IMG/VR virus record: IMGVR_UViG_3300021373_003070
Direction: 5' to 3' (one strand)
Origin: a virus
DNA: 64,000 nt
Numbering within the stretch: position 1 is the first letter of the stretch; every line of letters begins with the position of its first letter. This document shows, piece after piece, positions 6,079-43,782 of the stretch. The position numbers were made by a program, and so were the translations under genes. The notes beneath the pieces were generated by a model. The model ran no database searches and had not been told where the DNA came from. It saw nothing but the letters and a program-made list of their open reading frames with translations.

Positions 6079-7779
6079 ATGTTATATTTTAAGAAGATTC
6101 GTTGGCAGAATTTTTTGTCAACTGGTAATCAATTTACAGAGATATTGCTTAACAAATCACAATCTACATTGATCGTAGGTGAGAATGGCGCCGGCAAATC
6201 AACAATGCTGGACGCTATTTTGTTTGCGTTATATGGTAAGCCGTATCGAAACATCAATAAGCCTCAGCTAGTCAACAGCATCAATAACAAGCATGCACTT
6301 GTCGAAATAGAATTTAGTACAAAGGGCAAAGACTACTTAGTTCGCAGAGGTATCAAACCGGCAAAGTTTGAGATCTTCTGCGACGATAAGCTTGTTGATC
6401 AGAATGCAAGTGTCAAAGAGTATCAAGATTATCTCGAGAAGACTGTCCTCAAACTCAATCATAAGTCATTCACTCAAATCGTTGTGATTGGTTCGGCCAA
6501 CTTCGTACCATTTATGCAGATGAAAGTATGGGAACGACGTGATGTGATCGAAGATCTTCTTGATATCGAGATCTTTACGAAGATGAACAACGCATTACGC
6601 GACCGCATATCCAAAAACAAAGACGAAGTCATCGAAGCAAAGTATCATATCGATCTGCTCAATGAAAAGATAGAGCTTACACGTAAGCATATGAACGAAC
6701 TAGCGTCTATCAAAAAGTCTGATAAAGAAGCAAAAGAAAAACAGATCAAAGAACACAAACAACAACTGTCTGAGCTCACAGAAAAATACGAAGAGGTCAA
6801 TGGTCAGGTAAAAGAATTACACGAAAGTATTTCTGACTATCAAAAGCTAAAGGATAAGAAGTCGCAACTCAATGAGTTGAAATATAAGCTTGATCATAAA
6901 GTCAAGACATTACACGAAGAGATTGATTTCTTTGAACACAATGACAATTGTCCAGCTTGCACACAACCTATCGATTCACATGTAAAACAATGTGCCGTTG
7001 ATGACAAGAACAGTAAGCGTGTTGAGTTGCAAGAAGCAGTCACACAGATGGATGAACACTTTAGTGAGGTTGAGAATAGACTTGAGCAGGTCATGGTTGT
7101 ACAAGAAAAGATTCAAAGTCTCAACTCATCTCTTCTTAGTCTAAATAATGATATGCTATATCATTCCAATACGATCAAGAAATTGTCAGTTGAAGAGAAG
7201 AAACCAGAAGTCAAAGAAAATACAGATGACATGGCAGATTTGAAGGCTAAGCTAACTGCCAGTCAAGCATCTCATGAGTTTCTATTATTTCAAAAAGAAA
7301 CATATGAAATGGCATCATCACTGCTCAAAGACGGTGGTATCAAAGCAAAGATCATCAAACAATATGTACCTATCATCAACAAATTGATGAATAAGTATTT
7401 AGCTGCCATGGAATTTTTTGTGCAGTTTGAGTTAGATGAACAGTTTAATGAGAAAATCAAGTCGCGATTCCGTGATGAGTTTACGTACGACTCTTTTAGT
7501 GAAGGCGAGAAGATGCGTATTGATTTATCATTATTGTTTACTTGGCGAGCTGTAGCCAAGTTGCGTAATTCTATTACGACAAACCTGTTGATTATGGATG
7601 AGGTGTTTGACAGCTCTCTTGATAACACGGGTACAGATGAATTTATGAAACTGATTACGCAGTTGACTAGCGACACCAATGTGTTCGTGATTAGCCATAA
7701 AGGTGATCAACTATTTGATAAGTTTCATAGTAATATTAAATTTGAAAAGGTTAAAAATTTCTCGCAGATTGCTGCATAG
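6079..7779 (+). CDS. gp46: Recombination ATPase gp46 (Rad50-like)
   Basis: GENGAGKS Walker A, CPAC zinc hook, FSEGEK signature, IMDEVFD Walker B. Confidence 0.97.
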   Translation: MLYFKKIRWQNFLSTGNQFTEILLNKSQSTLIVGENGAGKSTMLDAILFALYGKPYRNINKPQLVNSINNKHALVEIEFSTKGKDYLVRRGIKPAKFEIFCDDKLVDQNASVKEYQDYLEKTVLKLNHKSFTQIVVIGSANFVPFMQMKVWERRDVIEDLLDIEIFTKMNNALRDRISKNKDEVIEAKYHIDLLNEKIELTRKHMNELASIKKSDKEAKEKQIKEHKQQLSELTEKYEEVNGQVKELHESISDYQKLKDKKSQLNELKYKLDHKVKTLHEEIDFFEHNDNCPACTQPIDSHVKQCAVDDKNSKRVELQEAVTQMDEHFSEVENRLEQVMVVQEKIQSLNSSLLSLNNDMLYHSNTIKKLSVEEKKPEVKENTDDMADLKAKLTASQASHEFLLFQKETYEMASSLLKDGGIKAKIIKQYVPIINKLMNKYLAAMEFFVQFELDEQFNEKIKSRFRDEFTYDSFSEGEKMRIDLSLLFTWRAVAKLRNSITTNLLIMDEVFDSSLDNTGTDEFMKLITQLTSDTNVFVISHKGDQLFDKFHSNIKFEKVKNFSQIAA

Positions 7780-7787
7780 GAGTCATC

Positions 7788-7964
7788 ATGTATAAGCTAT
7801 ATACAAAACTAAAAGAAGATCAAGAGTGGATTGCTGTTCTTGATGTCAAGCTCAGTCGAGTAAATAAAGTAGATCGTATTTTTATGAACCGTGAAGAGGC
7901 TGAGGCGTTCGTTAAGCAACAAAACATTCCTGATAACATGTACAAAATTGAAGAACAAGAGTAG
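7788..7964 (+). CDS. Hypothetical protein (58 aa, not in ORF track)
   Basis: AGGAG RBS; MYKLYTKLKEDQEW...EEQE. Confidence 0.55.
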   Translation: MYKLYTKLKEDQEWIAVLDVKLSRVNKVDRIFMNREEAEAFVKQQNIPDNMYKIEEQE

Positions 7965-7967
7965 AAT
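7939..7967 (+). promoter_or_regulatory. Promoter TGTACA-N17-TAGAAT upstream of the NTP pyrophosphatase
   Basis: Exact match to the recurring motif. Confidence 0.6.
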
Positions 7968-7991
7968 AGATACATCATTGAGGAGAAAATT

Positions 7992-8405
7992 ATGAGTAAC
8001 GATTGGGCATCAGACATTCGATCTATGCATGACAAATATGGTGTACACGAATGGGTACAGGAAAATCCAGAAAAGCTACGTGAGTTCCTACAGTTCCGAA
8101 TGAAGTTTATACAAGAGGAATTTAGCGAGACGCTCGAAGCAATCATCAATAATGATCCTGAAGAAATGGTCGACGGTCTTATTGATCTATGTGTTGTAGC
8201 TATCGGCACAATGGATGCATTTGGTATCGATGCTCATAAAGCGTGGAACGAGGTCTTCGCTGCCAACATGGCGAAAGAACGTGGTGTAAAAGAAACACGT
8301 CCTAATCCTCTCGGTCTACCAGATCTGATCAAGCCAGAAGGATGGCAAACACCATCACATGCCGGCAATCACGGCCTACTGGCTGAGATGTCACGATCGG
8401 AATAA
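7992..8405 (+). CDS. MazG-like all-alpha NTP pyrophosphohydrolase (possible dCTPase)
   Basis: EEFSE ... EMVDGLID acidic metal motif, ANMAK, DLIKPEGW. Confidence 0.8.
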   Translation: MSNDWASDIRSMHDKYGVHEWVQENPEKLREFLQFRMKFIQEEFSETLEAIINNDPEEMVDGLIDLCVVAIGTMDAFGIDAHKAWNEVFAANMAKERGVKETRPNPLGLPDLIKPEGWQTPSHAGNHGLLAEMSRSE

Positions 8406-8441
8406 CCGATTAATTTTGTGTTTTTTTGCTGAAAATAAGTG

Positions 8442-8470
8442 TGTACTTTTTCTTGATTATGCTGTAGAAT
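8442..8470 (+). promoter_or_regulatory. Early promoter TGTACT-N17-TAGAAT
   Basis: Motif match, AT-rich upstream tract, downstream TCAAAT leader motif. Confidence 0.7.
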
Positions 8471-8501
8471 AGACTAGTCAAATGGAAAAAGGTACACACT
8501 T

Positions 8502-9128
8502 ATGGCCTATTATTACGGCTCACTCAGAGACTCTCTGATCACAGAATGCCAGAACCAAGGCATGTCTCCATCTCATATCGAAAAGTATGCCAAGTACTAC
8601 ATGGCAAAGCAGAGAGCTGCTCGAGGTGGCGGCCGTTCAAAGACTGGATATCAGGACTCCGATAAGACAAAAGTCTATCGTTCAGAGTGGGCATTTCAGT
8701 CAAAGGTTGACATCCGTCAATTCAAAGATATCGACGAAGCAACACAAAGATTCAAGCAAATCAAGAAGTCAAAGCTGTGGAGTCAGATTGGTAAGCAATG
8801 CTATCTGATGGACAATCGCCGCATGGGTCGTGCTACTGCAGGTCGTGCACACGTTGGTGGTAAGATCGAGCTAGGTACAACAGGCATGGATGAGTATACA
8901 CTTATCCACGAAATGGCACATCAGACACATAACTCAATGCACCACGGTGTACAATTTCGTATCCACTTGTTAAAGTTAGTATCTAGATTTATGGGACGAG
9001 AAGCACATGACATTCTCAAAGCAGAATTCAAAGAACGTAAGCTTAAGCTATCAATGCCTAAGCCACGTTCACCGGCTAGCTGGTTCAAATCATATCAACA
9101 CATGCAAAAAGTAAGAGGTGAAGCATGA
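8502..9128 (+). CDS. SprT-like HExxH zinc metalloprotein
   Basis: TLIHEMAH...HHGVQF. Confidence 0.65.
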   Translation: MAYYYGSLRDSLITECQNQGMSPSHIEKYAKYYMAKQRAARGGGRSKTGYQDSDKTKVYRSEWAFQSKVDIRQFKDIDEATQRFKQIKKSKLWSQIGKQCYLMDNRRMGRATAGRAHVGGKIELGTTGMDEYTLIHEMAHQTHNSMHHGVQFRIHLLKLVSRFMGREAHDILKAEFKERKLKLSMPKPRSPASWFKSYQHMQKVRGEA

Positions 9129-9466
9129 AAGAATCACTTAAAGTTTTACAAGAATGTGCTGAGGTACAAATCAAAAAGTCTAATGACTATCAAAATGATT
9201 ACTCTCGCATTCGTCAAGCAGACTACTATCCTCGTGGTGTAGCTACTATCACAGATCTCATCTATGCTAAAGTTCTTCGTATGCAATCAGTCATCGAAGC
9301 TAGCGAACGTGATCCAGAATATACACCAAACTTCGAATCAATCGAAGATTCTGCTAAAGATCTAATCAACTATGCATCATTCGTTGTTGCATACATGCGT
9401 GGCCAAATGGATGGCCAAGAAACAAACCGTGACTTCCTTAATCGGGTGATTGATGATTCAGAATAA
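9125..9466 (+). CDS. Nucleotide-modification-associated all-alpha NTP-PPase (Nmad1/DUF1599-like)
   Basis: KKSNDY ... K.LR ... ESIEDSAKDLINYA pattern; adjacent to the hydroxymethylase. Confidence 0.7.
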   Translation: MKESLKVLQECAEVQIKKSNDYQNDYSRIRQADYYPRGVATITDLIYAKVLRMQSVIEASERDPEYTPNFESIEDSAKDLINYASFVVAYMRGQMDGQETNRDFLNRVIDDSE

Positions 9467-10130
9467 AGTACATGATATCCGTTCTTATTTCAAAGAAGCT
9501 TTACACAAAGAACAATTCACAATTGACAAGACTGGTCAAAAGACTATCGAATTAATTGGTGCATCGTTTATTGCAGACGAGCCATCTATCTTTGGTAGAC
9601 CGGTTCAAAAGTATATCGATGCCGAGATCAATTGGTATATTTCTCAATCTACTAACATTCACGATATCTATGATGAAGGTAGAGCACCACCTGAAGCTTG
9701 GAAGTATTCGGCAAATGAACACGGTGAGATCAACTCAAACTATGGCCATCTTATTTACAGTGAAAAGTATGGTAATCAATACCATCGTGTAATGCAAGAA
9801 CTTCTCGCTCATCCGGATGGCCGACGTGCAACAATGATTTATAATCGTCCATCTATATGGAATGAATACAACGAGAATGGTAAGTCAGACTTTATTTGTA
9901 CCAATGCTGTAACTTACTATGTACGTAATGGTAAACTCCACTGTGTGGTTCAGATGCGCTCTAACGATGTGGTTTTCGGTTACAAGAATGACTATGCTTG
10001 GCAGAAATATATACTAGATATGTTGGCTTATGATATTTCTAGTCATCACACACAAATATTTTCTGGTGATATTATGTGGCAGGTTCAAAACCTTCACGTA
10101 TACGAACGACACTTTAAATTGGTGGAATAA
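9450..10130 (+). CDS. gp42: dCMP hydroxymethylase (thymidylate synthase fold, T4 gp42-like)
   Basis: NSNYG, DFICT catalytic Cys, MRSNDVVFGYKNDYAWQ with Asp at the dCMP-specificity position, LHVYERHF. Confidence 0.9.
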   Translation: MMIQNKVHDIRSYFKEALHKEQFTIDKTGQKTIELIGASFIADEPSIFGRPVQKYIDAEINWYISQSTNIHDIYDEGRAPPEAWKYSANEHGEINSNYGHLIYSEKYGNQYHRVMQELLAHPDGRRATMIYNRPSIWNEYNENGKSDFICTNAVTYYVRNGKLHCVVQMRSNDVVFGYKNDYAWQKYILDMLAYDISSHHTQIFSGDIMWQVQNLHVYERHFKLVE

Positions 10131-10631
10131 ATGTGGATAATGTCCTCTCTTAGAATGATGTTTGTAGGTGCGCTGGCTTCGGCTGGTGTGCTTGCATATT
10201 TTTATTATGTTAATACTCAAGCTGAGTTAGAGTTACTACGCACTGAGATTGAACTATACGAAGTAAAGTTTGCCACACAAACTGAAACTATTGATGAGCT
10301 AAGAGATGAAATACAAGCTCAAACTGAAAGGCTAAATACTTTAGCCATGGCAAATCAAGAAGCTGAAGTCGAGTTGAACAGATATCTTGATATTTTTAGA
10401 CGACACAATTTGCAAAGGTTAGCGGCAGCTAAACCGGACTGGGTGTCGAATATTGTTAATAATGGAACGAAAGATGTATTTGACAGCATTGAAGAAGTTA
10501 GTCGTGTTATCGACTCTATTGATGGTGACGGGGTGCAGTTGGCTCCATCCGAAGACGGAGATACAGATACAGACGAAACAGGTGAGAGTGCCAATAGCAC
10601 AGCCGACACTTCCACGGGAACTGGATCTTAA
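10131..10631 (+). CDS. Probable inner-membrane spanin (Rz-like)
   Basis: N-terminal TM helix, long coiled coil, overlaps a lipoprotein gene. Confidence 0.65.
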   Translation: MWIMSSLRMMFVGALASAGVLAYFYYVNTQAELELLRTEIELYEVKFATQTETIDELRDEIQAQTERLNTLAMANQEAEVELNRYLDIFRRHNLQRLAAAKPDWVSNIVNNGTKDVFDSIEEVSRVIDSIDGDGVQLAPSEDGDTDTDETGESANSTADTSTGTGS

Positions 10632-10854
10632 AGAACCAAAGTTCTACGTAGTATCGGATAAAAATCTCGACGATTTTCTCGTAGAAATTGAGAAGCGTGC
10701 TGGTGGAATTGTATTCGTCGCCATCACTGTTGATGACTACGAACTGATGTCATATAACATGCAAGAGATTAAGCGCTATGTACAACAGATGAAATCTGTA
10801 GTAGTATATTACTATGATATCGTCGAAGACAACAATGCGAAGGCTGAAAAGTGA
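10474..10854 (+). CDS. Probable outer-membrane lipoprotein spanin (Rz1-like)
   Basis: Signal peptide with lipobox MVTGC; Pro-rich; starts inside the previous gene in another frame. Confidence 0.7.
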   Translation: MYLTALKKLVVLSTLLMVTGCSWLHPKTEIQIQTKQVRVPIAQPTLPRELDLKEPKFYVVSDKNLDDFLVEIEKRAGGIVFVAITVDDYELMSYNMQEIKRYVQQMKSVVVYYYDIVEDNNAKAEK

Positions 10855-11486
10855 GAGTTGCGTATTACGTCAATGGTAGTATACGTAAGGTAAATCAAAA
10901 CAATTTGCCATACGATCCTATTGATGTGCATACAGATTTTGCCAATAAGATTGGTGCAGATCTCGGAATGTCAACATGGGAAGTAAGTAGTGATCCAAAA
11001 TCAATATCGCTTCAAGAGCTCATGGAATTGCCATTTGAGAGAAGTAAACAGCCGCCGGGTTATTATCCGGATTTGTTCTGGCAACATGTAAATTATTGTG
11101 AATGGGCGGCATGCAATTATGAAGTATATGACGTATTAGTCAGAGGTCGTTGGGATAATATTTACAATGAAGATAACATCGACCTGATCAGTGAAAGCAT
11201 TACGGCGTGTTATACTGATAGAATGGCGTTTGGATTTTGCAACAGTCGATATCGAGCATTAGATGAATCACTCAAAAATATCAATGATCATGTGATTATT
11301 CATCCAGCTAAATCGTTTGATCCGGATTTTACCTCAAATTTCTTTCGTACATTCACCGGCGTATGGGAAGAAATGGGACCAGTAAGACAAAGTCAGCATG
11401 CTGCATGTAAAGCTGAACATATATGGTGGTGGCTACTATGTGGTCGAACAAATTTACCTTACAAGAATATTAGATTATCTGAATGA
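10851..11486 (+). CDS. Putative GT-A-like protein, paralog family member 1
   Basis: RVAYYVNGSIR ... YDVLVRGRWD; paralogous to 39729, 42474, 60768. Confidence 0.55.
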   Translation: MRVAYYVNGSIRKVNQNNLPYDPIDVHTDFANKIGADLGMSTWEVSSDPKSISLQELMELPFERSKQPPGYYPDLFWQHVNYCEWAACNYEVYDVLVRGRWDNIYNEDNIDLISESITACYTDRMAFGFCNSRYRALDESLKNINDHVIIHPAKSFDPDFTSNFFRTFTGVWEEMGPVRQSQHAACKAEHIWWWLLCGRTNLPYKNIRLSE

Positions 11487-12652
11487 TTGAAACTACAAAA
11501 TATTATGATGAATTCATAAGGTACTTCAACTTAGCCTATAAACAGCAAGAGCTATGTAATGTATCTGATAAAGAACCTTATGGCATGGTCGCACATAAGG
11601 ATTCGAATCTCGGTGATGATCTCATGGAGAATGTTGAATTATATGATGTAGTCGAACGCAAATATGCAGGCTTTTCTCAGATCATAAATGATTGTTTTTA
11701 TGGATGGACAGAAGATCATCCATATTGGAAAAAGATGCAGGCGGGCTTGTGTACCCGTCAACGAGAGACCGTCGCCAAAGACTGGACCGGTAAACAAGAC
11801 GTATTCTCTCTTCCTGAATGGCTCTATGTTTTTATCCTTCATAGAGTCACCGGTTCAGCAATTAACTATGCCCAGAAACCATCTGGGTATTTTAACACCA
11901 TCCTCTTCAATCTCCATCAGTGTGATACAATAGAAGAGATGGTGCAGCTGGCGAAGCACTACCCGGTACCCTTCTATACCTCAGTCGGTTACCAGTTCCC
12001 AGCGTTTCCAAAACCAGTCGGCGACTATAAGAAAGGCGGTGATTATTACCTCGGTGAATTTGCCCCTCGATTAGCTCGCGATCTCGCGGACCATTTGACG
12101 ATGGGTCCTCGCAAGGACCTTCGCGAGATTGGTGAGTTTATGCTGAAGTGGAATGAAGACAATGGTCTTCGACGCTATCAGTTTCAATACGCAGCTGTAG
12201 TCGCTGACGTCGCCGACTGGTTTCCTCAATACGTTAACCGTGAAAGCATGTTCTATTACGGTACAAATGCAGTAGAATGTATCTCTTACTTGGCTAAACC
12301 TGTCAAGAAGATGAAAAAAGAGTTGTTCCTTGATGCCGTCATGACGAAAATATATGATGATACAGGAAGTGTACCATATAATGCTGAAGATGTATGTTGC
12401 GACTTCATTCGTTATGTTGAAAATTATGTTCGCCCTGGTCCGGAATATAATCATTTAGATTATGATAATCTGTGGTCGTCATGCGGCATCAAGGATCACC
12501 CTTATGGAAGACAGAAATATATGTTGGATATGGGGTTGATAGAAACTTTTAATGGCATGAAAAATCATCCATCTGATGATGCAATTCTAAAAAATAATGA
12601 AATGACTGTTGAAGAGTACCAACGTAATGTCGCTAACTTACTTTCTAGGTGA
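11483..12652 (+). CDS. Amino acid:DNA transferase / aGPT-pyrophosphorylase-like protein A
   Basis: DDLMENVELYDVVER, FQYAAVVADV...YGTNAVECISYL, NAEDVCCDFIRY resemble aGPT-Pplase motifs; context of gp42 and a PLP enzyme. Confidence 0.6.
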   Translation: MIETTKYYDEFIRYFNLAYKQQELCNVSDKEPYGMVAHKDSNLGDDLMENVELYDVVERKYAGFSQIINDCFYGWTEDHPYWKKMQAGLCTRQRETVAKDWTGKQDVFSLPEWLYVFILHRVTGSAINYAQKPSGYFNTILFNLHQCDTIEEMVQLAKHYPVPFYTSVGYQFPAFPKPVGDYKKGGDYYLGEFAPRLARDLADHLTMGPRKDLREIGEFMLKWNEDNGLRRYQFQYAAVVADVADWFPQYVNRESMFYYGTNAVECISYLAKPVKKMKKELFLDAVMTKIYDDTGSVPYNAEDVCCDFIRYVENYVRPGPEYNHLDYDNLWSSCGIKDHPYGRQKYMLDMGLIETFNGMKNHPSDDAILKNNEMTVEEYQRNVANLLSR

Positions 12653-13619
12653 ACACGAAAATGATATCCAATATCAGAACATTGCTGAGGTGGATTACAA
12701 AAACGGCAAACCTACGTCGTCGTGGTTAAAAGGTTGGTGTCAAGAAGCTCGAACTGAAAAGTTTTTCGAGTTCTGTCGTGGCTACGATGCACGTCAAGAC
12801 TTTTTACTAAAGAACAACTATCAACAATTCTCACATCGATTGCACTGGCACGAATGTCCTTTTGTTGACGAGATGGCACAAGAGAAAGACAGAGTCAAGG
12901 TACTCGAAGCATGCGTTCTCTTCTCATTTAGCAACGAGCATTGGCAAACATTCAGAGCATGGCGTGATCATGGTCAAGACGGTATGAGAGTAAGATTTAC
13001 AAGCTATCGTCATGCTCGTAGCGATCTGTTTCAGATCTACTATCCAAAAGATACGAAGGTCAAAGACTGGCTCATCGAAGCGCCAGCTCGTATTGCACTT
13101 GAGCTCGATTCATTATTCGATGGCATGCGTAGACCGTTCACGATGATGGAATTTGCCAAAAAAATGAACATCATCATGGTCCGCGATTTTGGTTTTCGTA
13201 ATGCCATGTACCCGTCAAAGAATGCAGCGCGACATGTAGCGATGAGCCATCCTGAGTGGGTTGATCCTGACTCGTTCTTACATGGTGGTACAGGATACTT
13301 CGATGGTTTGTCGCAGATCTTTGACTGTCCACATCTTATGTCAAGATCAAAGTATGAGATTGATGAGGATGGTGAATACGTACCGATGAATAAATGGGCA
13401 GAGATGCAGATCCAACACATGGACTATCTCAAAAATCATCCTAGCAATCCTATTCATACACATCAGTATCTCAACTTAGAAGACAAGCTATGTATGCATT
13501 ACAAGTTTATGTCAATGAAGCTAGGTTCTAAAAAGCAAACAAAGATGATACCATATAACTGGGTGTATCCAGAGAATTGGTCTCTTAAAACAAATAGGTA
13601 TGATCGTGGCACACAATAA
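12627..13619 (+). CDS. Amino acid:DNA transferase / aGPT-pyrophosphorylase-like protein B (paralog of A)
   Basis: DFLLKNNYQQFSHR, HPEWVDPDSFLHGGTG, NLEDKLCMHYKF parallel protein A; ATG 12627 gives N-terminal MSLTYFL. Confidence 0.55.
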   Translation: MSLTYFLGEHENDIQYQNIAEVDYKNGKPTSSWLKGWCQEARTEKFFEFCRGYDARQDFLLKNNYQQFSHRLHWHECPFVDEMAQEKDRVKVLEACVLFSFSNEHWQTFRAWRDHGQDGMRVRFTSYRHARSDLFQIYYPKDTKVKDWLIEAPARIALELDSLFDGMRRPFTMMEFAKKMNIIMVRDFGFRNAMYPSKNAARHVAMSHPEWVDPDSFLHGGTGYFDGLSQIFDCPHLMSRSKYEIDEDGEYVPMNKWAEMQIQHMDYLKNHPSNPIHTHQYLNLEDKLCMHYKFMSMKLGSKKQTKMIPYNWVYPENWSLKTNRYDRGTQ

Positions 13620-14490
13620 TCATGTAATCGATGGCGTCAACAAAGACGTAGGAGTTTTTGGCTATGAAGCAGCAAAAGAATACTACTTATCTCTCACTGA
13701 AGGATGGGAACCATTCAATCCAGATCCCGTTGTCCGTGAACATGAAGGAGTACGGGTCGTTAGAGATGACCTTATCATGGGGACAAAATCGCGAGCTGGC
13801 GATCTCCTTGCCTTCAAAGCCCCTGCCGAAACGTTGGTATACTGTCAGCCAAGGACTGGACTCGCTGGGGTATCGTTATTAGATGTAGCTAAACATCACA
13901 ATCGTAAGGTTGTCTTGTTTATGCCATCATCAAAGAGAGTATCACATCATCAGGCATGTTGTATAGAACGTGGAGCAGAAGTGCATTTCCATCGTATTGC
14001 AGCGATGCCAAATCTTAACAAAAAGGCAAAAGAATATGCAGAAAAACATGGATACTTTTTCATCCCTCTTGGTCTTAGACACGAGTACGCTACCGCCGCA
14101 ATTGTACACGCAGCTAGTAAAATACCTGAGCCAGATGAAGTGTACGTTGCTACTTCGACTGGAGTTCTCAATCGCGCTCTTCAAATTGCATGGCCAAATG
14201 CTCGTATCAATGGTATTGCCGTCGCTCGTAACATGAAGGCCGGCGAGCTAGGTCGATCTACCATTACATCAGAACCTTTGCCATTCATAAAAGCAGAGAA
14301 GAAAGAAAATCTACCACCGTTCCCGTCCATCGACACATATGATGGTAAGGTGTGGAAATACATTCCAAAAAATAGTGGTAAAAATATACTTTTTTGGAAT
14401 GTAGGTACTGAACCTAGTTTACAAGATGATACAATCTATGATAGAATAGATTCATATCGCGATTGGGAGAAAAATAATGCATCAGCGTAG
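13600..14490 (+). CDS. PLP-dependent enzyme, fold type II
   Basis: VVRDDLIMGTKSR (PLP Lys), ATSTG phosphate loop, YDGKVW, LFWNVG. Confidence 0.8.
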   Translation: MIVAHNNHVIDGVNKDVGVFGYEAAKEYYLSLTEGWEPFNPDPVVREHEGVRVVRDDLIMGTKSRAGDLLAFKAPAETLVYCQPRTGLAGVSLLDVAKHHNRKVVLFMPSSKRVSHHQACCIERGAEVHFHRIAAMPNLNKKAKEYAEKHGYFFIPLGLRHEYATAAIVHAASKIPEPDEVYVATSTGVLNRALQIAWPNARINGIAVARNMKAGELGRSTITSEPLPFIKAEKKENLPPFPSIDTYDGKVWKYIPKNSGKNILFWNVGTEPSLQDDTIYDRIDSYRDWEKNNASA

Positions 14491-15580
14491 TGGATTAGTA
14501 GCAACACCTTTTATTACAATCTCACGCCAATTAAGTAGCCATAGAGCTGCGCAAGGTGTTATATATGCCGATCAATTACAAGAAGCTAACGTTGGCCAGA
14601 TTAAAGTCAACATGACAGGGGACCAATACGAAAGTGAATTCAGTAATTATGATGACCTGTATGTATATCATGGCAATGATTGGAGTGGCAATATTAATCT
14701 TTTTGGCGGTCTCAATAATTTCCCTTATATTGAAAACTTTGTCAATTTCTCTAGATTTACTGGTAAAGTGTATTCCCTTGTTATTGATATGCCTGATTAT
14801 TATGGCCTTATGAAAGAGAAGTTCGACAAGGCTAAAGAAAAAGGCAAAGAATGGAATCCTTTATGGGATGGCATCGATTGGGATAATCTCAAACGAATGT
14901 GTGAAACTGCCGAAACGATTGTGCCTAACGAACTACACAAATTTACAAAAATGTCTGTCGGTGATAGTCATGCAATATGCATGTATCGCCCGGGCTGGAA
15001 CAATCTATCCGTACCATTCAAGACATTACACGGCGCATTGAAAGAAGGACTCGAATCATTTCTCGAAGATAGAACATATACACATCTAGAATTTTACTTT
15101 GGCAACATCGATGTAAGACATCACCTTTGTCGTCAAGATGATCCTGTAGCTGCCACACGACAACTCGTTGCAGAGTATATGAAGCAGGCTCATGCCATTG
15201 CACAGAAGTATAATTGCAAAATTCGTATCTACGAACTCCTGCCAATCGAAGCAGAAACACGATCTATTCCAAAAACTGGTTGGTATAAAGGTACGCCGTT
15301 CTATGGCTCTCGTCAAGAGAGAAATGATATTCGCAAGTTGTTCAAAGAAGAAGTAAGAAAGAGATGCACAGACGAGGTGCAACTTTACGAGTGGATTGGT
15401 GAGATGGTTAACTCGAGAGGTGAACTCGATTTTGAGTTTATGGAACGACCTCAGTCAGTACATTTATCTCGTCGTTGGTATCCACATTGGCAAGGCTATC
15501 AGTGGAGTCACGCTCCGTATGTTGAATATATACCTACAGCAGAGCGAGAAACAACTACACTTGAGGATTTTTTTAGCTAA
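14477..15580 (+). CDS. SGNH/GDSL-fold protein with C-terminal clamp-binding-like peptide
   Basis: VGDSH (block I), FGNID (block III), SVHL (block V); ends TLEDFFS. Confidence 0.55.
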   Translation: MHQRSGLVATPFITISRQLSSHRAAQGVIYADQLQEANVGQIKVNMTGDQYESEFSNYDDLYVYHGNDWSGNINLFGGLNNFPYIENFVNFSRFTGKVYSLVIDMPDYYGLMKEKFDKAKEKGKEWNPLWDGIDWDNLKRMCETAETIVPNELHKFTKMSVGDSHAICMYRPGWNNLSVPFKTLHGALKEGLESFLEDRTYTHLEFYFGNIDVRHHLCRQDDPVAATRQLVAEYMKQAHAIAQKYNCKIRIYELLPIEAETRSIPKTGWYKGTPFYGSRQERNDIRKLFKEEVRKRCTDEVQLYEWIGEMVNSRGELDFEFMERPQSVHLSRRWYPHWQGYQWSHAPYVEYIPTAERETTTLEDFFS

Positions 15581-16788
15581 TGAAGCATGCGACTATTATT
15601 CCATTAATTGGAGGTGAAGTGCTCGCCTCCGAAAAGGTGTTCGGCCATAAGCCGGATTATATCCTATCATATAATGCGTTTCAAGCAAACGAAGAGCACC
15701 TACTAAATTATTGGAATCATGAGGTACCGTACTACGTACTCGACGAAGGGGATCGCCACCCCCATCCCGTAGACGTAGTGTCCAGTGTATGTCCTTGTGC
15801 TGGCTTGTCATTGTTCAGCACGCGTTATGGAGAGGACAACAAAAACAATCGCTGGATGATTGAAACGGCTAAGTACGTTCTTGGCGAGATCAAGCCTCTT
15901 GTATTTTGGGGAGAGAATGCCCCAACCTTCACCGGTAAAATCGGTGCACCAATTCGAAATCAACTTATCGAAGTTGGTAAAGAACACGGTTATGTTATGT
16001 CAATGTTTAAGACAAAAAGTCTTTTGCACGGCATACCACAAACACGCGAACGTACATTCTACTTCTTCTGGAAAGGAGACAAGGTACCAGTGTTTGACTA
16101 CTATCGTAGAGACATGACATCAATCGAAGATCTTATACTGAGTGTCGATCGTGATCCTAAGGATCCGATGTCTGAAGTCATTAATAGAACCAAACCAACA
16201 GACAATCCTTTCTACAAATATTTACTTGAGGAGATTCACGGTGGAATATCTCATCGCGATCATTTTGATTCCATTGATGTGCGGGACCCTTCAACTCCTA
16301 ATTATCTTGATGTATATAGCCTCATTGAAAGCCATAAACACGACTACGTCCGTGTTGGAAAATGGCTGGAAAATAAAGGCTATGACCGCGAATCGAAGCG
16401 AGCTTATCGAATGTATGATAAGTTGGAGTCAGGTGGTAATATTATGCGCCGCGGCACTATTCTGCCTAAAGGTCATATCGGATCATTTGTAGGTCACTAT
16501 CCTCAGATGCTAACACATCCACATGAAGATCGATACATTACATTTCGAGAAGCAATGACAATCATGGGTCTGCCTGAAGATTATCAGCTTCTCAATCCTC
16601 GTGGTAGCTTCAATCATATATGTCAGAATGTACCTTATCAGACAGCTGTAGATATGGCTACCGAAGTAAAGGCAGCAATCGAAGGTCAACGACCATGGGT
16701 TGATGCTAACGTTTCTTTGCAGCAAAACACATCTAAAAAGTTTGAAATTTTAGACAAAGAAGAATCTACACTTGAATCATTTTTCTAG
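15580..16788 (+). CDS. DNA cytosine-C5 methyltransferase-fold protein with degenerate SAM motif
   Basis: PCAGLS (IV), ENA (VI), PQTRER (VIII), RYITFREA...GLPEDY (IX); motif I reads IPLIGG; ends TLESFF. Confidence 0.8.
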   Translation: MKHATIIPLIGGEVLASEKVFGHKPDYILSYNAFQANEEHLLNYWNHEVPYYVLDEGDRHPHPVDVVSSVCPCAGLSLFSTRYGEDNKNNRWMIETAKYVLGEIKPLVFWGENAPTFTGKIGAPIRNQLIEVGKEHGYVMSMFKTKSLLHGIPQTRERTFYFFWKGDKVPVFDYYRRDMTSIEDLILSVDRDPKDPMSEVINRTKPTDNPFYKYLLEEIHGGISHRDHFDSIDVRDPSTPNYLDVYSLIESHKHDYVRVGKWLENKGYDRESKRAYRMYDKLESGGNIMRRGTILPKGHIGSFVGHYPQMLTHPHEDRYITFREAMTIMGLPEDYQLLNPRGSFNHICQNVPYQTAVDMATEVKAAIEGQRPWVDANVSLQQNTSKKFEILDKEESTLESFF

Positions 16789-16817
16789 TGTACATTCTTG
16801 TCCACATGCTGTACAAT
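16789..16817 (+). promoter_or_regulatory. Promoter TGTACA-N17-TACAAT
   Basis: Motif match upstream of the GT-gp45 unit. Confidence 0.55.
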
Positions 16818-16846
16818 TTATAAATCTTATCGAATATAGGTAAACT

Positions 16847-17824
16847 ATGGAAATCAATGTACCAGTCGAAGAACTTCGCCAATATAAGGTGATGATTGGC
16901 ACACCAATGTACGGGGCTCAATGCTCAGGTATGTACACGCGATCGATGGCAGAGTTAACAACTACGATGCAGCGATATGGTGTTCCGATGCAATTTTATT
17001 TCTTGTTCAATGAATCTCTTATTACTCGAGCACGTAACTATTGTGTTGATGAGTTTATGCGATCTGATTGCACGCATCTTATGTTCATCGATTCTGACAT
17101 CTCATTTAAAGCACAAGATGTACTATCGATGCTAGCTATTATGCATCAACGACAAGAAATGGATGTGTGTTGTGCACCATATCCGAAGAAGACAATTGCA
17201 TGGGAAAAAATTACTCAGGCTGTCAAGAGTGGTGTCGCTGACGAAGATCCAAATGTCCTCGAAAATTTTGTTGGTGATTATGTCTTCAATCCAATCAGAC
17301 CCAAAGAAAAGGGTGAACACTTTATCAAGTTATCAGAACCAACCGAAGTAGCAGAAGGTGGTACTGGTTTTATGATGATCAAGCGAGAAACGTTTGACAA
17401 GTATAAAGAAACATATCCACAATTTATGTATCGACCAGATCATGTTCGAACTGCACATTTTGATGGTTCAACAGAAATCATGGCATATTTCGATGCATTG
17501 ATTGATGATAAATCACAGAATCTAATACCTGAAATAAAAGCATTCTTTAAGAAGAATCCGAATGCTAAGAACAATGATGTCGTCAGGTTCCTTGAAGATA
17601 AGACAAAGGGTATCGATCAGAAGCAATACTCGAATCGATACCTGTCAGAAGATTACATGTTTTGTTATAATGTAAGACGTGCAGGAATGAAAGTATTCAT
17701 GTGTCCTTGGATGGAATTGAAACATATGGGTGCATACGTATTCGGTGGTTCTCTTGCAGCTCTCGCATCAGTTGGTGCAGCGGCTACAGCGGATCCTGAA
17801 AAACTTGGAAAGAAAAAAGGATAA
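16847..17824 (+). CDS. GT-A fold glycosyltransferase
   Basis: GTPMYG, ESLITRARN, FIDSD (DxD), GTGFMMIKR, YLSEDY.FC. Confidence 0.85.
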   Translation: MEINVPVEELRQYKVMIGTPMYGAQCSGMYTRSMAELTTTMQRYGVPMQFYFLFNESLITRARNYCVDEFMRSDCTHLMFIDSDISFKAQDVLSMLAIMHQRQEMDVCCAPYPKKTIAWEKITQAVKSGVADEDPNVLENFVGDYVFNPIRPKEKGEHFIKLSEPTEVAEGGTGFMMIKRETFDKYKETYPQFMYRPDHVRTAHFDGSTEIMAYFDALIDDKSQNLIPEIKAFFKKNPNAKNNDVVRFLEDKTKGIDQKQYSNRYLSEDYMFCYNVRRAGMKVFMCPWMELKHMGAYVFGGSLAALASVGAAATADPEKLGKKKG

Positions 17825-17832
17825 ATTATATT

Positions 17833-18486
17833 ATGAAACTCAACCAACGCTCGGTACAAATTCTCAAGAATTTTTCTACCATTAATCCGTCAATTCAGTT
17901 TCGAGAAGGTAATGCTCTCAAGACTATTTCGCCAAACAAAACCATTATGGCGAAAGCAGTTCTCGAAGATCAGATTCCACAAGACTTTGCAATCTATGAC
18001 TTGTCGCGATTCTTAGGAGTGTCATCTTTGTTCGAAGATCCTGATTATGTACTCGCTGATCGCAATGTTGTGATTGCGGCACCGGGACGACAGGTAAGTT
18101 ATACTTTCGCTGATCCTAATACGATCGTGTCAGCTCCAAACAAAGACATTGATATTGGTGATGTCGATGTGCAGTTCGAACTGAAGCAAGAAGTATTTGC
18201 CGAAGTAATGAAAGCACTCGGTGTGATGAGCTTTCCTGAAGTTGTAGTTGCAGGCGAAAATGGTCGAATTGTTTTACGCGCAACTGATACGAAGAATCCA
18301 TCAGCAGATAAATATGACATTGAAGTTGGTGAAACAGATCTTGAATTCACCTCTGTCTTCAAATCCGAGAATCTCAAAATCTTATCTGGCAACTATGTTG
18401 TTGGTATCTCATCGAAAGGTATCTCACACTTCCGCGGTGATGATGTAGAATATTGGATCTCGATCGAATCGAACTCTGCTTTTTAA
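17833..18486 (+). CDS. gp45: DNA polymerase sliding clamp gp45
   Basis: ILKNFSTINPSI, FAIYDLSRFL, YWISIE. Confidence 0.95.
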   Translation: MKLNQRSVQILKNFSTINPSIQFREGNALKTISPNKTIMAKAVLEDQIPQDFAIYDLSRFLGVSSLFEDPDYVLADRNVVIAAPGRQVSYTFADPNTIVSAPNKDIDIGDVDVQFELKQEVFAEVMKALGVMSFPEVVVAGENGRIVLRATDTKNPSADKYDIEVGETDLEFTSVFKSENLKILSGNYVVGISSKGISHFRGDDVEYWISIESNSAF

Positions 18487-18588: not shown

Positions 18589-18900
18589 ATGTCTGAAGAA
18601 AAATATCATCCTGCTGACACTAATGGTGATGGCAAGGTAAGCAAAGAAGAAGAATTGCTGTATCTGGAATTCAAGCGAAAAGAACTTGAAGATGCTGATG
18701 CGATGCGTGATGCTCAGCGTAATATGACTTGGTTTGCACTGGCTGGTCTTCTCTTATATCCATTCGCTGTCGTATTGACAGATATTATAGATCTTGAACA
18801 AGCTGCCAAAATCCTTGGTGATATGGCTGCTACTTATTTTGTTTCCGTTGCCGGTATTGTTGCGGCGTTTTTTGGAGCGCAGGCTTGGAGCAAAAAGTAA
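18589..18900 (+). CDS. EF-hand plus two-TM membrane protein
   Basis: DTNGDGKVSKEE EF-hand loop; two hydrophobic helices. Confidence 0.75.
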   Translation: MSEEKYHPADTNGDGKVSKEEELLYLEFKRKELEDADAMRDAQRNMTWFALAGLLLYPFAVVLTDIIDLEQAAKILGDMAATYFVSVAGIVAAFFGAQAWSKK

Positions 18901-19584
18901 ATGAGACATATGATCATATTCATTATGTTTCTGCTTTTATCAGGATCTGTAGCTGCTGAAAAAAGTATTCGTGAAGATTACATAGAACCATCAGAACCAG
19001 TTGAAGATATTGTCGATCCTAACAATGAACAGAACGGCGATTTAAATTCTAATCAACAAAATTCAAACAATAACAATAGAAGTACAACTAATATTGGTGC
19101 AGGAGCAGGAGCTCCGACGCCAGTACCTACGGCTATCGCTCCATCTCTCATGTCGTCTGGGAGTGATACCTGTTTACAAAGTCGAGGAACCGGTGTGCAA
19201 TTATTAGATATCGGAGTTTCGCGTGGAGCATATAAGCAAGATGAAGAATGTAACCGACGACGTGACGCGAAAGTCTTCAAAGATTTAGGCATGGTGCTAC
19301 CAGCAGTTAGTCGCATGTGTCAAAATGAAGACAATTGGAAAGCCATGTTTTCATCAGGCAATCCATGTCCGATATTAGTGGCCGGTAAAATGGTCTTTGG
19401 TAAGAGAGCCGTGCTGGCAATGAGAAACCAGCCAACGGTTTATATTCCTGATTACGATGAAAATAGAACTTACTACGACACAGTTTTAGGAATAGGACAA
19501 AAAGATGAAAAATCTGAAAAATCTGATGATGAGCGTAGCATTAGTGAGCGGTTCCGCACTAGCGGGTCCAGTACAGTGGAATAG
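18901..19584 (+). CDS. Secreted Cys-containing hypothetical protein
   Basis: Signal peptide, Asn-rich linker, TAIAPS...DTC...EECNRRR...MCQ...PCP. Confidence 0.7.
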   Translation: MRHMIIFIMFLLLSGSVAAEKSIREDYIEPSEPVEDIVDPNNEQNGDLNSNQQNSNNNNRSTTNIGAGAGAPTPVPTAIAPSLMSSGSDTCLQSRGTGVQLLDIGVSRGAYKQDEECNRRRDAKVFKDLGMVLPAVSRMCQNEDNWKAMFSSGNPCPILVAGKMVFGKRAVLAMRNQPTVYIPDYDENRTYYDTVLGIGQKDEKSEKSDDERSISERFRTSGSSTVE

Positions 19585-20440
19585 CGTCGATAACCTCGTA
19601 ACTGCTTCCGGTAGTATCAATACAACTTTAGACGCCGCTATTAAGCGTGTTGGTGGTGTACAAAGTGGAATTGGTGTTTCTGCTGGTAACATTACGCCCG
19701 ATGGATTCCTAGAAACTTCTGCTACGTTGTTAACGAGTGCACAGCAAGATGCCTACAACCTTGCTGTCTTGGAAGTCACCGCGGATGTATTTTCGAAAAC
19801 AGCAGCAGAGTATTTTGCTGAAGAGTATGAAACTGCGGGTATTAGCTTTAGTGAAGCAGTTGATGCATTCGTCAATGCTACTACAGCTATCGCAATTGCA
19901 AGTCATGTAGGAAATATGGCAACACAGGTACAAACATCCGGTGATGCTATTCAAGGTCAACAACTACAGGCGTATGTTCAGAACAACTCTGTTTTGATTA
20001 CGACTGCAGAACTTGATGCCTTTAACAACTCGCAAACTGCATTGCAAGATGCAGCTGATCAGTATGCTGCGGTTGCCGCAGTATATAATGATGCGCAAAT
20101 GATTTCTAATTTCCAGACTAACGCTGATTTAAACGGTGTAGATTTCTTGAATGCTGATTCAGTATTCTTAGATCGTATCGAAAATCAAGGGCTCACTGGC
20201 TTTCAGGCTGGTGTCGTAGTTGACTTTACATCAACTGCAAGCTTGATGTTAGTTGAAGATATTAGTGCTAATATTGAAACGACAAACTTCTTTGTTAACG
20301 CAGGTGCCACGAGCTTCTTTTATACACAAGGCCCAACACAAGATGTTGACACAACTTGTTCTGTTGTAAATGGTGTACTCACTGGTACATTCCAAAACGA
20401 AGATCCTGCAATGCCATGTTACATTGAACCAATGCCATAG
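19505..20440 (+). CDS. Secreted Ala/Thr/Gln-rich helical protein
   Basis: Signal peptide MKNLKNLMMSVALVSGSALA. Confidence 0.7.
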   Translation: MKNLKNLMMSVALVSGSALAGPVQWNSVDNLVTASGSINTTLDAAIKRVGGVQSGIGVSAGNITPDGFLETSATLLTSAQQDAYNLAVLEVTADVFSKTAAEYFAEEYETAGISFSEAVDAFVNATTAIAIASHVGNMATQVQTSGDAIQGQQLQAYVQNNSVLITTAELDAFNNSQTALQDAADQYAAVAAVYNDAQMISNFQTNADLNGVDFLNADSVFLDRIENQGLTGFQAGVVVDFTSTASLMLVEDISANIETTNFFVNAGATSFFYTQGPTQDVDTTCSVVNGVLTGTFQNEDPAMPCYIEPMP

Positions 20441-20449
20441 GAAACTAAA

Positions 20450-20992
20450 ATGTCAATAGAAGAAATGGAACTAAATGTTGGCGGTACATCATTCAAAGGT
20501 GTATGGCTAGCAGTGCTTCTTTCATTTTCTTCTACACTTGGAGGCGGTATTTGGGCCGCCTCTGAGTTCTTCTCACGACTAAATTTGTTAGAGGAAACGG
20601 TAGAAGAATCGCTAAAAAATACTGAGCTAGTATCTGCTCGTTTCAATGATCTCAAGGAAGAGATTGATGAAGACTTAAATGATGCTGATGTAGAAATAAA
20701 CAAAGTGACTCAACAACTCTTAGACAATGATGTAGCTGGTCTACAAGGCAAGTTAGCAACACTAGGTACAAACCTAAAAAGTATTATGGATCGACAACAA
20801 GAACTGATTACACTTGGTGAACGTATTGTCGAAGTTGAGAAAAAAATAACCGAAACTGAAACACTCGTTTCGAAAGCTGAGATACTCTTTAAAGATGCAG
20901 ATAAAATCAACAATAAACTAGATGTGATTCAAAAAGAGATCGACGATTTATGGAACGGCCTCGATTATCTTTCGAATCCATACGGGAGCTAA
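20450..20992 (+). CDS. Membrane-anchored coiled-coil protein
   Basis: N-terminal TM, heptad pattern, ends LDYLSNP. Confidence 0.7.
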   Translation: MSIEEMELNVGGTSFKGVWLAVLLSFSSTLGGGIWAASEFFSRLNLLEETVEESLKNTELVSARFNDLKEEIDEDLNDADVEINKVTQQLLDNDVAGLQGKLATLGTNLKSIMDRQQELITLGERIVEVEKKITETETLVSKAEILFKDADKINNKLDVIQKEIDDLWNGLDYLSNPYGS

Positions 20993-20993
20993 T

Positions 20994-21179
20994 ATGACTG
21001 GATTTATTTTCTCTTTGTGGGAGTGGGTCAACGCGTTGACTCTACTAAGCGTAATGTGTTCGGCCTTTGTTGCCGCGACACCAACACCAAAAGACGATGA
21101 GCTGTGGGGAAAGATCTATAAGTATATAGATGTCTTCGCACTCAACATAGGCAAGGCAAAAGATAAGTACAGCCTATAA
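20994..21179 (+). CDS. Small membrane protein (holin-like)
   Basis: Hydrophobic helix, AATPTPKDD, ALNIGKAK. Confidence 0.6.
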   Translation: MTGFIFSLWEWVNALTLLSVMCSAFVAATPTPKDDELWGKIYKYIDVFALNIGKAKDKYSL

Positions 21180-26513: not shown

Positions 26514-27104
26514 ATGCAAGAAAAAGTAATTCTAACCGACTGTGATGGCGTACTTCTTGATTGGGAGTATGCCTTCGGTCGTTGGATGGCCCGCCACGGA
26601 TATGAAGTAAAAGTAGAGGGTGTCTATAAAATGGACGTCAAGTACGGTCTCCCTCGACAAGCGTCGAAGGCGTTAGTACGAATGTTTAATGAAAGTGCAT
26701 CAATCAGGAAGATACCACCACTGAGAGATGCAATTAAGTATGTGCGAAAGTTACATGAAGAACATGGCTATGTATTTCATGCCATTACTTCTCAAACAGA
26801 TGACGAGTATGCACAACACCTTCGAATCAAAAATTTATGTGAACTGTTCGGACCATCTACGTTCGAAAAGTATGTCATCTTAGACTGCGGTGCAGATAAG
26901 GATGAAGCGTTAGCAGAATACAAGAACACAAATTGTTTTTGGATCGAAGATAAAGTAGAGAATGCATTGGTCGGTGAGACGATGGGTTTAAGATCAATCC
27001 TCATGGCTCATGGCTTCAACGAAAATCAAGAAGAATGGGCAGACTCTGAAATCATCAGAGTACAGGATTGGAGAGAGTTGTATGACGTCATCACCGGATA
27101 CTAA
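26514..27104 (+). CDS. HAD-family 5'(3')-nucleotidase-like protein
   Basis: ILTDCDGVLLDW (DxDG), ITS, WIEDK. Confidence 0.85.
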   Translation: MQEKVILTDCDGVLLDWEYAFGRWMARHGYEVKVEGVYKMDVKYGLPRQASKALVRMFNESASIRKIPPLRDAIKYVRKLHEEHGYVFHAITSQTDDEYAQHLRIKNLCELFGPSTFEKYVILDCGADKDEALAEYKNTNCFWIEDKVENALVGETMGLRSILMAHGFNENQEEWADSEIIRVQDWRELYDVITGY

Positions 27105-39726: not shown

Positions 39727-39728
39727 AT

Positions 39729-43747: not shown

Positions 43748-43776
43748 TGTACAAAATCATCATTATGCTGTAGAAT
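43748..43776 (+). promoter_or_regulatory. Promoter TGTACA-N17-TAGAAT
   Basis: Motif match. Confidence 0.65.
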
Positions 43777-43782
43777 ATGCAG

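Follow-up and report, generated by a model that had tools for sequence, protein, structure and literature searches.

Our results suggest that a gene cluster at positions 7992-17824 of IMGVR_UViG_3300021373_003070, a viral sequence from IMG/VR that we analysed over a whole stretch of 64,000 nucleotides (nt; hereafter the window), encodes a pathway by which the phage hypermodifies the 5-hydroxymethylcytosine (5hmC) of its genome, without the DNA kinase of the known thymine pathways. We regard this reading as fairly probable. Most likely, a set of enzymes that stands in place of the sugar-adding enzymes of T4 puts the decoration on the phage cytosines. The central proteins are a T4 gp42-like hydroxymethylase, an SGNH-fold enzyme, two paralogous proteins here called A and B, and a pyridoxal phosphate (PLP) enzyme. 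The idea of a kinase-free toolkit, resembling that of the amino-acid transferases and wired to 5hmC, is supported by the genes present, by folds and motifs, by gene fusions and by co-occurrence. In the literature that we searched, no such system is described.

The source is an uncultured marine T4-like phage. The window encodes the major head protein, UvsY, a UvsW-like helicase and the gp55 late sigma factor together with gp47/gp46, the gp45 clamp, the gp44 clamp loader, and UvsX. Its DNA polymerase shares 49% identity with the DNA polymerases of T4-like cyanophages. At least part of the stretch is contained in 15 public sequencing runs, all available as contigs; wherever half or more of its sampled words are present, the run is a seawater or marine metagenome. 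Neither megablast with the whole cluster nor tblastn with protein A gave a match among 50,697 phage records.

All genes of the cluster lie on the + strand and are bounded by gp46 (6079-7779) and gp45 (17833-18486). A preliminary description of this region had proposed a tightly coupled gene set, and the arrangement bears this out: every open reading frame (ORF) that it listed is present on the + strand, and from 8502 to 16788 the genes overlap by 1-26 nt or join without a gap, the sole gap in the run up to 16788 being the 96 nt between the ORF at 7992-8405 and the one starting at 8502. The cluster also holds genes absent from that list, namely a weakly SprT-like ORF (8502), a spanin-like pair (10131-10854) and an orphan ORF (10851). 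A promoter scan of the cluster was at chance level (38 found, 34 expected).

Gene-neighbourhood co-occurrence had been put forward as a check on this reading, and the core of the module does recur, with conserved gene order and mostly between gp46 and gp45, in the 80 loci that we examined out of 555 IMG/VR loci encoding a relative of protein A. Subject to limits set by contig ends and flank length, the PLP and SGNH genes are each present in 72 of the 80 loci, the hydroxymethylase gene in 54, the DUF1599 gene and the gene for protein B in 46 each, and the MazG gene in 40. In a complete 256-kb phage, an SGNH-A-B-PLP block lies ~90 kb from a hydroxymethylase of the cytosine-specific Asp type (see below), and a canonical ThyA is also present. 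These patterns bear on the possibility that linkage is incidental and that A, B, the PLP enzyme and the SGNH enzyme serve another process, such as small-molecule or cell-envelope metabolism, in a variable gp46-gp45 region. It is true that no close relative of any of the four has been characterised and that the region also houses unrelated genes (the spanin pair and the orphan ORF). However, the module co-occurs with an Asp-type hydroxymethylase in divergent phages, once at the distance just mentioned, a DNA-directed fold and clamp-type tails are present among its proteins, and we consider incidental linkage highly improbable.

Supply of 5-hydroxymethylcytosine

The ORF at 9450-10130 (+ strand), whose true start is probably the ATG at 9453, encodes a homologue of the T4 dCMP hydroxymethylase gp42. 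Over nearly the whole length of the protein, residues 7-226 align with residues 8-226 of PDB entry 1b49 (phmmer, E 9.4e-69), and the catalytic Cys within SDFICTN, the motif RSNDVVFGYKND and RSND are all present. In ThyA numbering, N177D selects dCMP, L143D/E accompanies a hydroxymethyl product and D169N marks the 5-hydroxy-dCMP synthases (PMC13326640). The 9450 enzyme, like T4 gp42, has Asp at all three positions, and the same diagnostic residues, including RSND/Asp169, are found in 53 of 53 hydroxymethylase homologues that adjoin the module. A dUMP enzyme and a 5-hydroxycytosine synthase are therefore both ruled out, as far as sequence goes, and by homology and diagnostic residues the 9450 ORF is assigned as a dCMP-specific, hydroxymethyl-forming enzyme. 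Thus, two proposals of the preliminary description, that the cluster holds a gp42-like hydroxymethylase with the dCMP-specifying Asp and that the toolkit is wired to hydroxymethylcytosine, stand, the latter also in the 256-kb phage with its distant copy.

Two small proteins encoded upstream may act in the same branch. The ORF at 7992-8405 (+ strand) encodes an all-alpha nucleoside triphosphate pyrophosphatase of the MazG/PRA-PH type (PF01503, E 4.5e-11, above the cut-off; phrog_671, nucleotide pyrophosphohydrolase, E 1e-23), which we infer to be a dCTPase and thus the functional counterpart of T4 gp56. By MetaGPA, PF01503 has been linked to hydroxymethylase genes in cytosine-modified viral contigs (PMC8670742). 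The ORF at 9125-9466 (+ strand), which overlaps the hydroxymethylase gene by 17 nt, encodes a DUF1599 or 'nucleotide modification associated domain 1' (NMAD1) protein that matches phrog_1485, phrog_18404 and, just under the cut-off (23.9 vs 25 bits), PF07659 (E 5.5e-5). Because phrog_18404 is matched in adjacent halves by this ORF and by the MazG ORF, fused forms of the two exist.

Proteins A and B, the SGNH enzyme and the PLP enzyme

Protein A (11483-12652, + strand) is an enzyme of the helix-hairpin-helix (HhH) glycosylase fold with an invariant Glu302-x-x-x-Cys306 motif. Its AlphaFold model (predicted local distance difference test score, pLDDT, 95.3) has an HhH DNA-glycosylase-like fold and finds its best structural match in gp46 of PaMx11; in the Foldseek search this 5-phosphomethyl-dU glycinyltransferase ranked first without reaching significance (no match at E <= 0.001). 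Catalysis by the PaMx11 enzyme (gp46, PUGT) involves Glu243, Thr244 and Cys247 (PMC11472151), and Cys and Glu are essential in M6 gp51 and ViI gp247 as well (PMC8989533). An alignment of 48 diverse members of the protein A family shows G124, S125, G135, N138, F234, D242, G260, E302 and C306 to be invariant. E302 and C306 have the same spacing as E243 and C247 of PaMx11 gp46 (E-x-x-x-C), and, with the structural alignment ending at 317 against 258, C306 would come to lie on C247. The family comprises 929 homologues in metagenomes, all of them without a Pfam domain or a name, and an exhaustive HMMER search yielded 144 cluster representatives.

Protein B (12627-13619, + strand) carries an invariant Glu-Asp-Lys-x-Cys motif (E285-D-K-x-C289) that aligns with the motif of A. 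Proteins A and B had been proposed to be paralogues and to resemble aGPT-pyrophosphorylases and amino acid:DNA transferases. Their paralogy is borne out by hhalign over 138 C-terminal columns (probability 93.4%, E 2.4e-7), with the EDxxC motifs aligned, while BLASTP alone gives E 0.008. The second part of the proposal holds for the modelled HhH fold of A and for the E-x-x-x-C motif but not for sequence profiles. The ORFs at 11483 and 12609 have no Pfam match at E up to 10, and the former also has no PHROG match. Against 26 PF18724 (aGPT-Pplase2) proteins, hhalign gave a probability of 2.7% for the A family and 0.15% for the B family; the A family against PaMx11 gp46 alone gave no signal, and the profiles of both families found nothing useful among PDB sequences. 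Neither is therefore a detectable member of PF18724, the likeness lying in fold and motif. Lacking a sequence link to aGPT-Pplase2, A and B are treated here as new families that probably work like amino-acid:DNA transferases, and we suggest that protein A is a nucleophile:DNA transferase acting on activated 5hmC.

An HhH fold could also belong to a DNA glycosylase or lyase, in which case A and B might police DNA, attacking unmodified host cytosine or removing misincorporated bases, in a phage whose own DNA contains plain 5hmC. We think this quite unlikely. The top structural match of A is a transferase and not a glycosylase, the invariant E-x-x-x-C agrees with the catalytic pair of the transferases, and the tight linkage and fusion with the SGNH enzyme, as well as the linkage with the PLP enzyme, which have no role in base excision, argue in the same direction.

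The ORF at 14477-15580 (+ strand) encodes a two-domain enzyme with a Rossmann-like N-domain (residues ~1-150), an SGNH domain (~150-354) and a C-terminal TLEDFFS tail. The SGNH fold named in the preliminary description is correct, and the catalytic set is intact, with blocks I (GDS), II (G), III (GxND) and V (His). Among its structural matches are the solved SGNH O-acetyltransferases PatB and OatA. ORF 14477 has no useful Pfam match at E up to 10, and the profile of its family found nothing useful among PDB sequences. An ESM Atlas feature search with the N-domain gave no usable match, and an ESM Atlas fold search returned unnamed viral clusters and one GDSL cluster only. By hhalign, residues 52-104 of the N-domain align with residues 53-100 of T4 beta-glucosyltransferase (BGT) over 48 columns (probability 66.5%, E 5.4e-5); Asp104, which is aligned to the catalytic Asp100 of BGT, is Asp in 16 of 24 sequences. 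We found no report in the literature of an SGNH enzyme that acts on a DNA base. We propose that ORF 14477 is a candidate clamp-tethered 5hmC-DNA acyltransferase or esterase.

Support for a role of the SGNH enzyme in activation comes from gene fusions. All seven A-family cluster representatives of at least 639 amino acids (639-790), each standing for a separate 50%-identity cluster, consist of an SGNH module followed by an A domain. In the thymine systems, the partner fused to the transferase is the DNA kinase (PMC8989533). The SGNH-A fusions thus mirror the kinase-transferase fusions, which suggests that the SGNH enzyme sits in the kinase's place. The cluster itself, as the preliminary description had noted, is free of P-loop kinases: a search for Walker-A motifs found none in the cluster and, in the window, only those of gp46, gp44 and gp41, and HMUDK_hel (PF18723) is absent from five near-complete relatives (E up to 1).

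Clamp-type tails point to the place where these enzymes may work. T4 polymerase binds gp45 via its C-terminal tail. The gp43-homologous DNA polymerase of the window (36033-38585, + strand) ends in KISTLEDFFSD, which served as the reference clamp-binding peptide, and ORF 14477 ends in TTTLEDFFS and ORF 15580 in ESTLESFF. Such a tail is found in 38 of 70 SGNH homologues and in some PLP-enzyme homologues too. We therefore consider the TLEDFFS tail a probable sliding-clamp handle with gp45 (17833-18486, + strand; PF09116, E 4.9e-15; phrog_223, E 1e-70) as its docking partner. A complex prediction with three copies of gp45 and residues 325-367 of ORF 14477 scored 0.49, with the best control at 0.04, and was graded as weak support; the mark applied is reached by 58 of 80 solved complexes and by 2 of 110 mismatched pairs, with only 7 of the 80 and both mismatches reaching it at 0.60 or less. 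Between runs, 53% or more of the contacts agree, and the pLDDT of the partner is at least 37.

The tails also bear on the possibility that the enzymes act before replication on free hydroxymethyl-dCMP or its triphosphate and that the finished nucleotide is then polymerised. The 5hmC carbamoyltransferase found by MetaGPA also accepts hydroxymethyl-dCTP (PMC8670742), the genes of the cluster adjoin nucleotide-metabolism genes, and a dNMP kinase was not found in the near-complete relatives, all of which would fit such a route. Polymerase-type clamp tails on ORF 14477 and ORF 15580 speak for action on DNA instead, as does the DNA-glycosylase fold of A, the closest solved relative of which binds duplex DNA with the base flipped; we give the free-nucleotide route a slim chance.

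Cultured relatives of the SGNH module exist in Aeromonas. Phages 44RR2.8t, 31 and 25 and their relatives encode a 795-residue protein, ORF233c (6992-9379 of the examined 44RR2.8t stretch), in which an SGNH module takes up the first 335 residues (hmmsearch, E 2.6e-85). The C-terminal half, from a helical family whose members often match HMUDK_hel, has a clamp-like end (SLDGLFAI) and contains an invariant FGCEIxCCQF (E-x-x-C-C-x-F) that resembles EDVCCDF of protein A. Phage 44RR2.8t also encodes an Asp-type gp42 homologue and a gp1 kinase; the PLP enzyme is not detectable in it. ORF233c adjoins a sodium:solute symporter-like gene in 44RR2.8t. A kinship of A and B with HMUDK, explored via ORF233c, found no support: the A family and the HMUDK_hel-type family gave no signal in hhalign (probability 0.09%), nor did the HMUDK_hel-type family and aGPT-Pplase2, and a comparison of A with the C-terminal part of ORF233c by hhalign and hmmsearch was likewise negative.

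The pathway may also run in another order or to another product, with the SGNH enzyme either making a final O-acyl or O-aminoacyl ester of 5hmC or removing a protecting ester last, and with A, B and the PLP enzyme preparing or tailoring the group. An acylated base had been suggested in the preliminary description too, PatB and OatA are O-acetyltransferases, the clamp tail would place the SGNH enzyme on DNA, and in 44RR2.8t the SGNH module occurs although no PLP enzyme is detectable. However, the SGNH module is repeatedly fused upstream of an A domain, and the conserved Glu/Cys pair of A is the hallmark of displacement at the C5 methylene, whereas an ester needs no cysteine enzyme. We consider a final ester, or late ester removal, unlikely and continue to favour an SGNH enzyme that activates 5hmC for protein A.

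The remaining core gene (13600-14490, + strand) encodes a probable fold-type-II, tryptophan-synthase-beta-like PLP enzyme with an invariant Lys63 in GTKSR (phrog_7093, 'threonine dehydratase', E 6e-35). Its family profile matches only O-acetylserine sulfhydrylases in the PDB, and these weakly (E 0.02). The protein of the window has no Pfam match, also at E up to 10, while the homologous domain in gp1 of Erythrobacter phage R6L matches PALP (PF00291) at 2.5e-10. The PLP decarboxylases of the thymine pathways of ViI and M6, which act on DNA, share the tryptophan-synthase-beta-like fold (PMC8989533). By analogy, we suggest that the PLP enzyme of the cluster may tailor the appended group. The only relatives in cultured phages are found in R6L and in Microcystis phage Mae-JY30. 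In vB_EliS_R6L, the PALP domain lies within the 807-residue gp1, an N6/N4 DNA methylase protein, and in Mae-JY30 the gene (26815-27645) sits beside a methylase gene and a ParB-like gene. These relatives hint at a role of PLP enzymes on DNA in further modification systems.

A model for the pathway and its relation to known systems

In our model, the MazG-type pyrophosphatase, probably together with the DUF1599 protein, would convert dCTP to dCMP, and the gp42 homologue would convert dCMP to hydroxymethyl-dCMP, which some kinase would phosphorylate, so that the polymerase could place 5hmC in DNA. Within this first step, homology and diagnostic residues underpin the hydroxymethylase, and the other assignments are suggestions. 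ORF 14477, held at the clamp by its polymerase-like tail, would then acylate the hydroxymethyl group of 5hmC with its SGNH Ser-His site, and the acyl leaving group would replace the phosphate of the thymine pathways. Next, protein A, with B where present, would attack C6 of the flipped-out base with its conserved Cys, displace the leaving group and attach an amine or amino acid, in the manner of PaMx11 gp46, M6 gp51 and ViI gp247 on 5-phosphomethyl-uracil; fold, motif and fusions point to this third step. By analogy with M6 gp52 and ViI gp226, the fold-type-II PLP enzyme might finally trim the appended group, for example by decarboxylation. The end product would be a 5-(amino-substituted)methylcytosine that shields the DNA from host nucleases.

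More tentatively, and with this detailed version being possible rather than probable, we speculate that a clamp-tethered hybrid of a glucosyltransferase-type 5hmC-receiving domain and an SGNH acyltransferase O-acylates 5hmC in newly replicated DNA, that new Cys-dependent HhH-fold transferases swap the acyl group for an amino acid or amine, and that the PLP enzyme trims the product to yield an undescribed class of bases, 5-(aminoalkyl or aminoacyl)methylcytosine, that would be widespread among marine T4-like phages.

Several points weigh against the model. The reactions, their donors, their order and the resulting base are all deduced, and no chemistry was observed; an acyl donor is not evident, and the step order is a guess. 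Most SGNH enzymes are hydrolases. The segment of ORF 14477 that resembles T4 BGT spans only 48 columns (66.5%), and the counterpart of Asp100 is Asp in just 16 of 24 sequences. The proposed equivalence of the cysteines in A and PaMx11 gp46 relies on the motif and on the ends of the alignment range rather than on a superposition, and the PLP assignment on a PHROG match and weak PDB matches. Finally, a search of near-complete T4-like relatives for T4 gp1, thymidylate kinase and AAA_33 found the clamp-loader P-loop only, and thus no kinase of these types that could take hydroxymethyl-dCMP towards the triphosphate.

Among the closest known systems is thymidine hypermodification in M6, ViI, PaMx11, PhiW-14 and SP10, which uses a dUMP hydroxymethylase, a 5-hydroxymethyl-dU DNA kinase, an aGPT-Pplase2 transferase, a PLP decarboxylase and other tailoring enzymes (PMC8989533, PMC5889632, PMC11472151). 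As in those systems, the 5-hydroxymethyl pyrimidine comes from a thymidylate-synthase homologue, a Glu-x-x-x-Cys pair is present in an HhH-fold enzyme that often occurs as two paralogues, a probable tryptophan-synthase-beta-like PLP enzyme adjoins, and fusions join the transferase to the enzyme that activates the base, here presumably the SGNH enzyme. Unlike in those systems, the base here is predicted, from the Asp-type hydroxymethylase, to be cytosine and not uracil or thymine; in place of the 5-hydroxymethyluracil DNA kinase (5-HMUDK) or another P-loop kinase there is an SGNH enzyme whose N-domain may be glucosyltransferase-like; PF18724 membership is not detectable for A and B; and enzymes of the cluster bear clamp-type tails.

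The 5hmC pathway of T4 itself consists of the gp56 dCTPase, the gp42 hydroxymethylase, the gp1 kinase and alpha- and beta-glucosyltransferases. The cluster shares with it a gp42 homologue with all diagnostic residues, a MazG-type pyrophosphatase where a dCTPase is needed and a short segment of ORF 14477 that weakly resembles the N-domain of BGT, which receives 5hmC. In contrast to T4, the UDP-glucose-binding half of BGT has no homologue here and an SGNH domain is found instead, a gp1 homologue was not found in near-complete relatives, and the decoration is expected not to be a sugar. The 5hmC carbamoyltransferase clusters described by MetaGPA (PMC8670742) also come from uncultured phages and combine a dCMP hydroxymethylase and PF01503 with an enzyme that derivatises the 5hmC hydroxyl, but the derivatising enzymes here are of unrelated families, a carbamoyltransferase is absent, and several steps would replace one. 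Likewise, the arabinosylation of 5-hydroxycytosine (5hoC) in RB69 and DLP3 (PMC13326640) involves a gp42-like enzyme acting on dCMP in T4-like phages and a subsequent, post-replicative decoration; those synthases have Asn at ThyA position D169 and make 5-hydroxy-dCMP, whereas the enzyme here and its 53 homologues keep Asp. Finally, ORF 14477 has the fold and the Ser/Gly/Asn/His catalytic blocks of SGNH O-acetyltransferases and esterases (PatB, OatA, sialate O-acetylesterase and PAF acetylhydrolase), but differs from enzymes of the PatB/OatA type in its added Rossmann-like N-domain and clamp tail and in being fused or linked to a DNA-glycosylase-fold enzyme.

Neighbouring genes and significance

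Two further genes at the downstream end had been counted as members of the system. The ORF at 15580-16788 (+ strand) encodes a C5-cytosine-methyltransferase-fold protein (PF00145, E 1.2e-15, matching from residue 63 only) with PC, ENA and QTRER motifs and a degenerate motif I that reads IPLIGG. It is found in only 9 of the 80 loci and is an occasional accessory. An enzyme of this fold also takes part in the CmoX/CmoY 5-carboxymethylcytosine-glycine system of cyanophage S-B43, likewise a marine T4-like phage, where it serves an amino-acid-bearing cytosine (PMC12783734). Unlike CmoX, ORF 15580 reads SVCPCAG and not the family-defining SPPC, apart from its rarity among the loci, and neither CmoA nor an AMP-forming ligase was found among the ORFs scanned.

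The second gene, a GT-A-like ORF (16847-17824, + strand), has weak matches to PF13506 (E 0.0011, below the cut-off, 25 residues matched) and phrog_34859 (E 3e-5) and a strong one to phrog_1574 (E 2e-61), to which no function is assigned. Its homologues occur widely in T4-like cyanophages, rhizobiophages, a pelagiphage and others, and tblastn in the phage records that carry them found no A or PLP gene, and an SGNH gene only in two Stenotrophomonas records. Because the ORF is kept in many T4-like phages where module genes were not found, it is probably not part of the system, contrary to the preliminary description, but a lineage gene that merely adjoins gp45.

Among the genes interspersed in the cluster, a 208-residue ORF (8502-9128) between the MazG and DUF1599 genes has a weak SprT-like metalloprotease match (E 0.0017) and occurs in 6 of the 80 loci. 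Two overlapping ORFs in different frames, at 10131-10631 (phrog_739, E 2e-11) and 10453-10854 (phrog_812, E 2.8e-13), match Rz-like spanin families and look like an i-spanin/o-spanin (Rz/Rz1-like) pair inserted mid-cluster, common to the three closest contigs only. The 211-residue ORF at 10851-11486, which shares 4 nt with the start of the protein A gene, has no Pfam match, no PHROG match and no homologue in the 80 loci.

Elsewhere in the window, gp45 and gp44, the genes for which are adjacent in T4, are separated (18589-21179) by several small ORFs, one with a weak EF-hand match and others encoding coiled-coil proteins. A second enzyme cluster (38884-44436) lies in the interval from the DNA polymerase to UvsX and comprises a HAD phosphatase-nucleotidyltransferase fusion (41110-42477), an FkbM methyltransferase (43777-44436) and four unassigned ORFs; with a GT25 glycosyltransferase and a Methyltransf_24 protein encoded at 33307-34810, it may form an activated-sugar pathway. 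Three 2-oxoglutarate-Fe(II) oxygenase genes (28071-28799, 47141-47728 and 47956-48681) match phrog_81, the first also PF13759, and a TET/JBP family match is reported for none of them.

To our knowledge, the phage decorations described on 5hmC or 5hoC are sugars or a carbamoyl group, and amino-acid-type decorations are known on thymine, by a route that needs a DNA kinase. On cytosine, an amino-acid-type decoration is known in cyanophage S-B43, where it is made by amide ligation to 5-carboxymethylcytosine (PMC12783734). If our model is correct, displacement-type chemistry would extend to cytosine, and hydroxymethyl bases would have a second activation route, independent of a kinase and run by enzyme families without a known role on DNA. 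The SGNH enzyme and the cysteine transferase, for both of which action on 5hmC is predicted, could be developed into 5hmC-labelling tools, and the cultured Aeromonas phages 44RR2.8t, 31 and 25, with their SGNH module and gp42 homologue, make part of the question testable at the bench. Finally, since the module is common in aquatic viromes, with 929 proteins and 555 IMG/VR loci, the modification could affect the sequencing, the restriction and the host-defence sensing of marine phage DNA.

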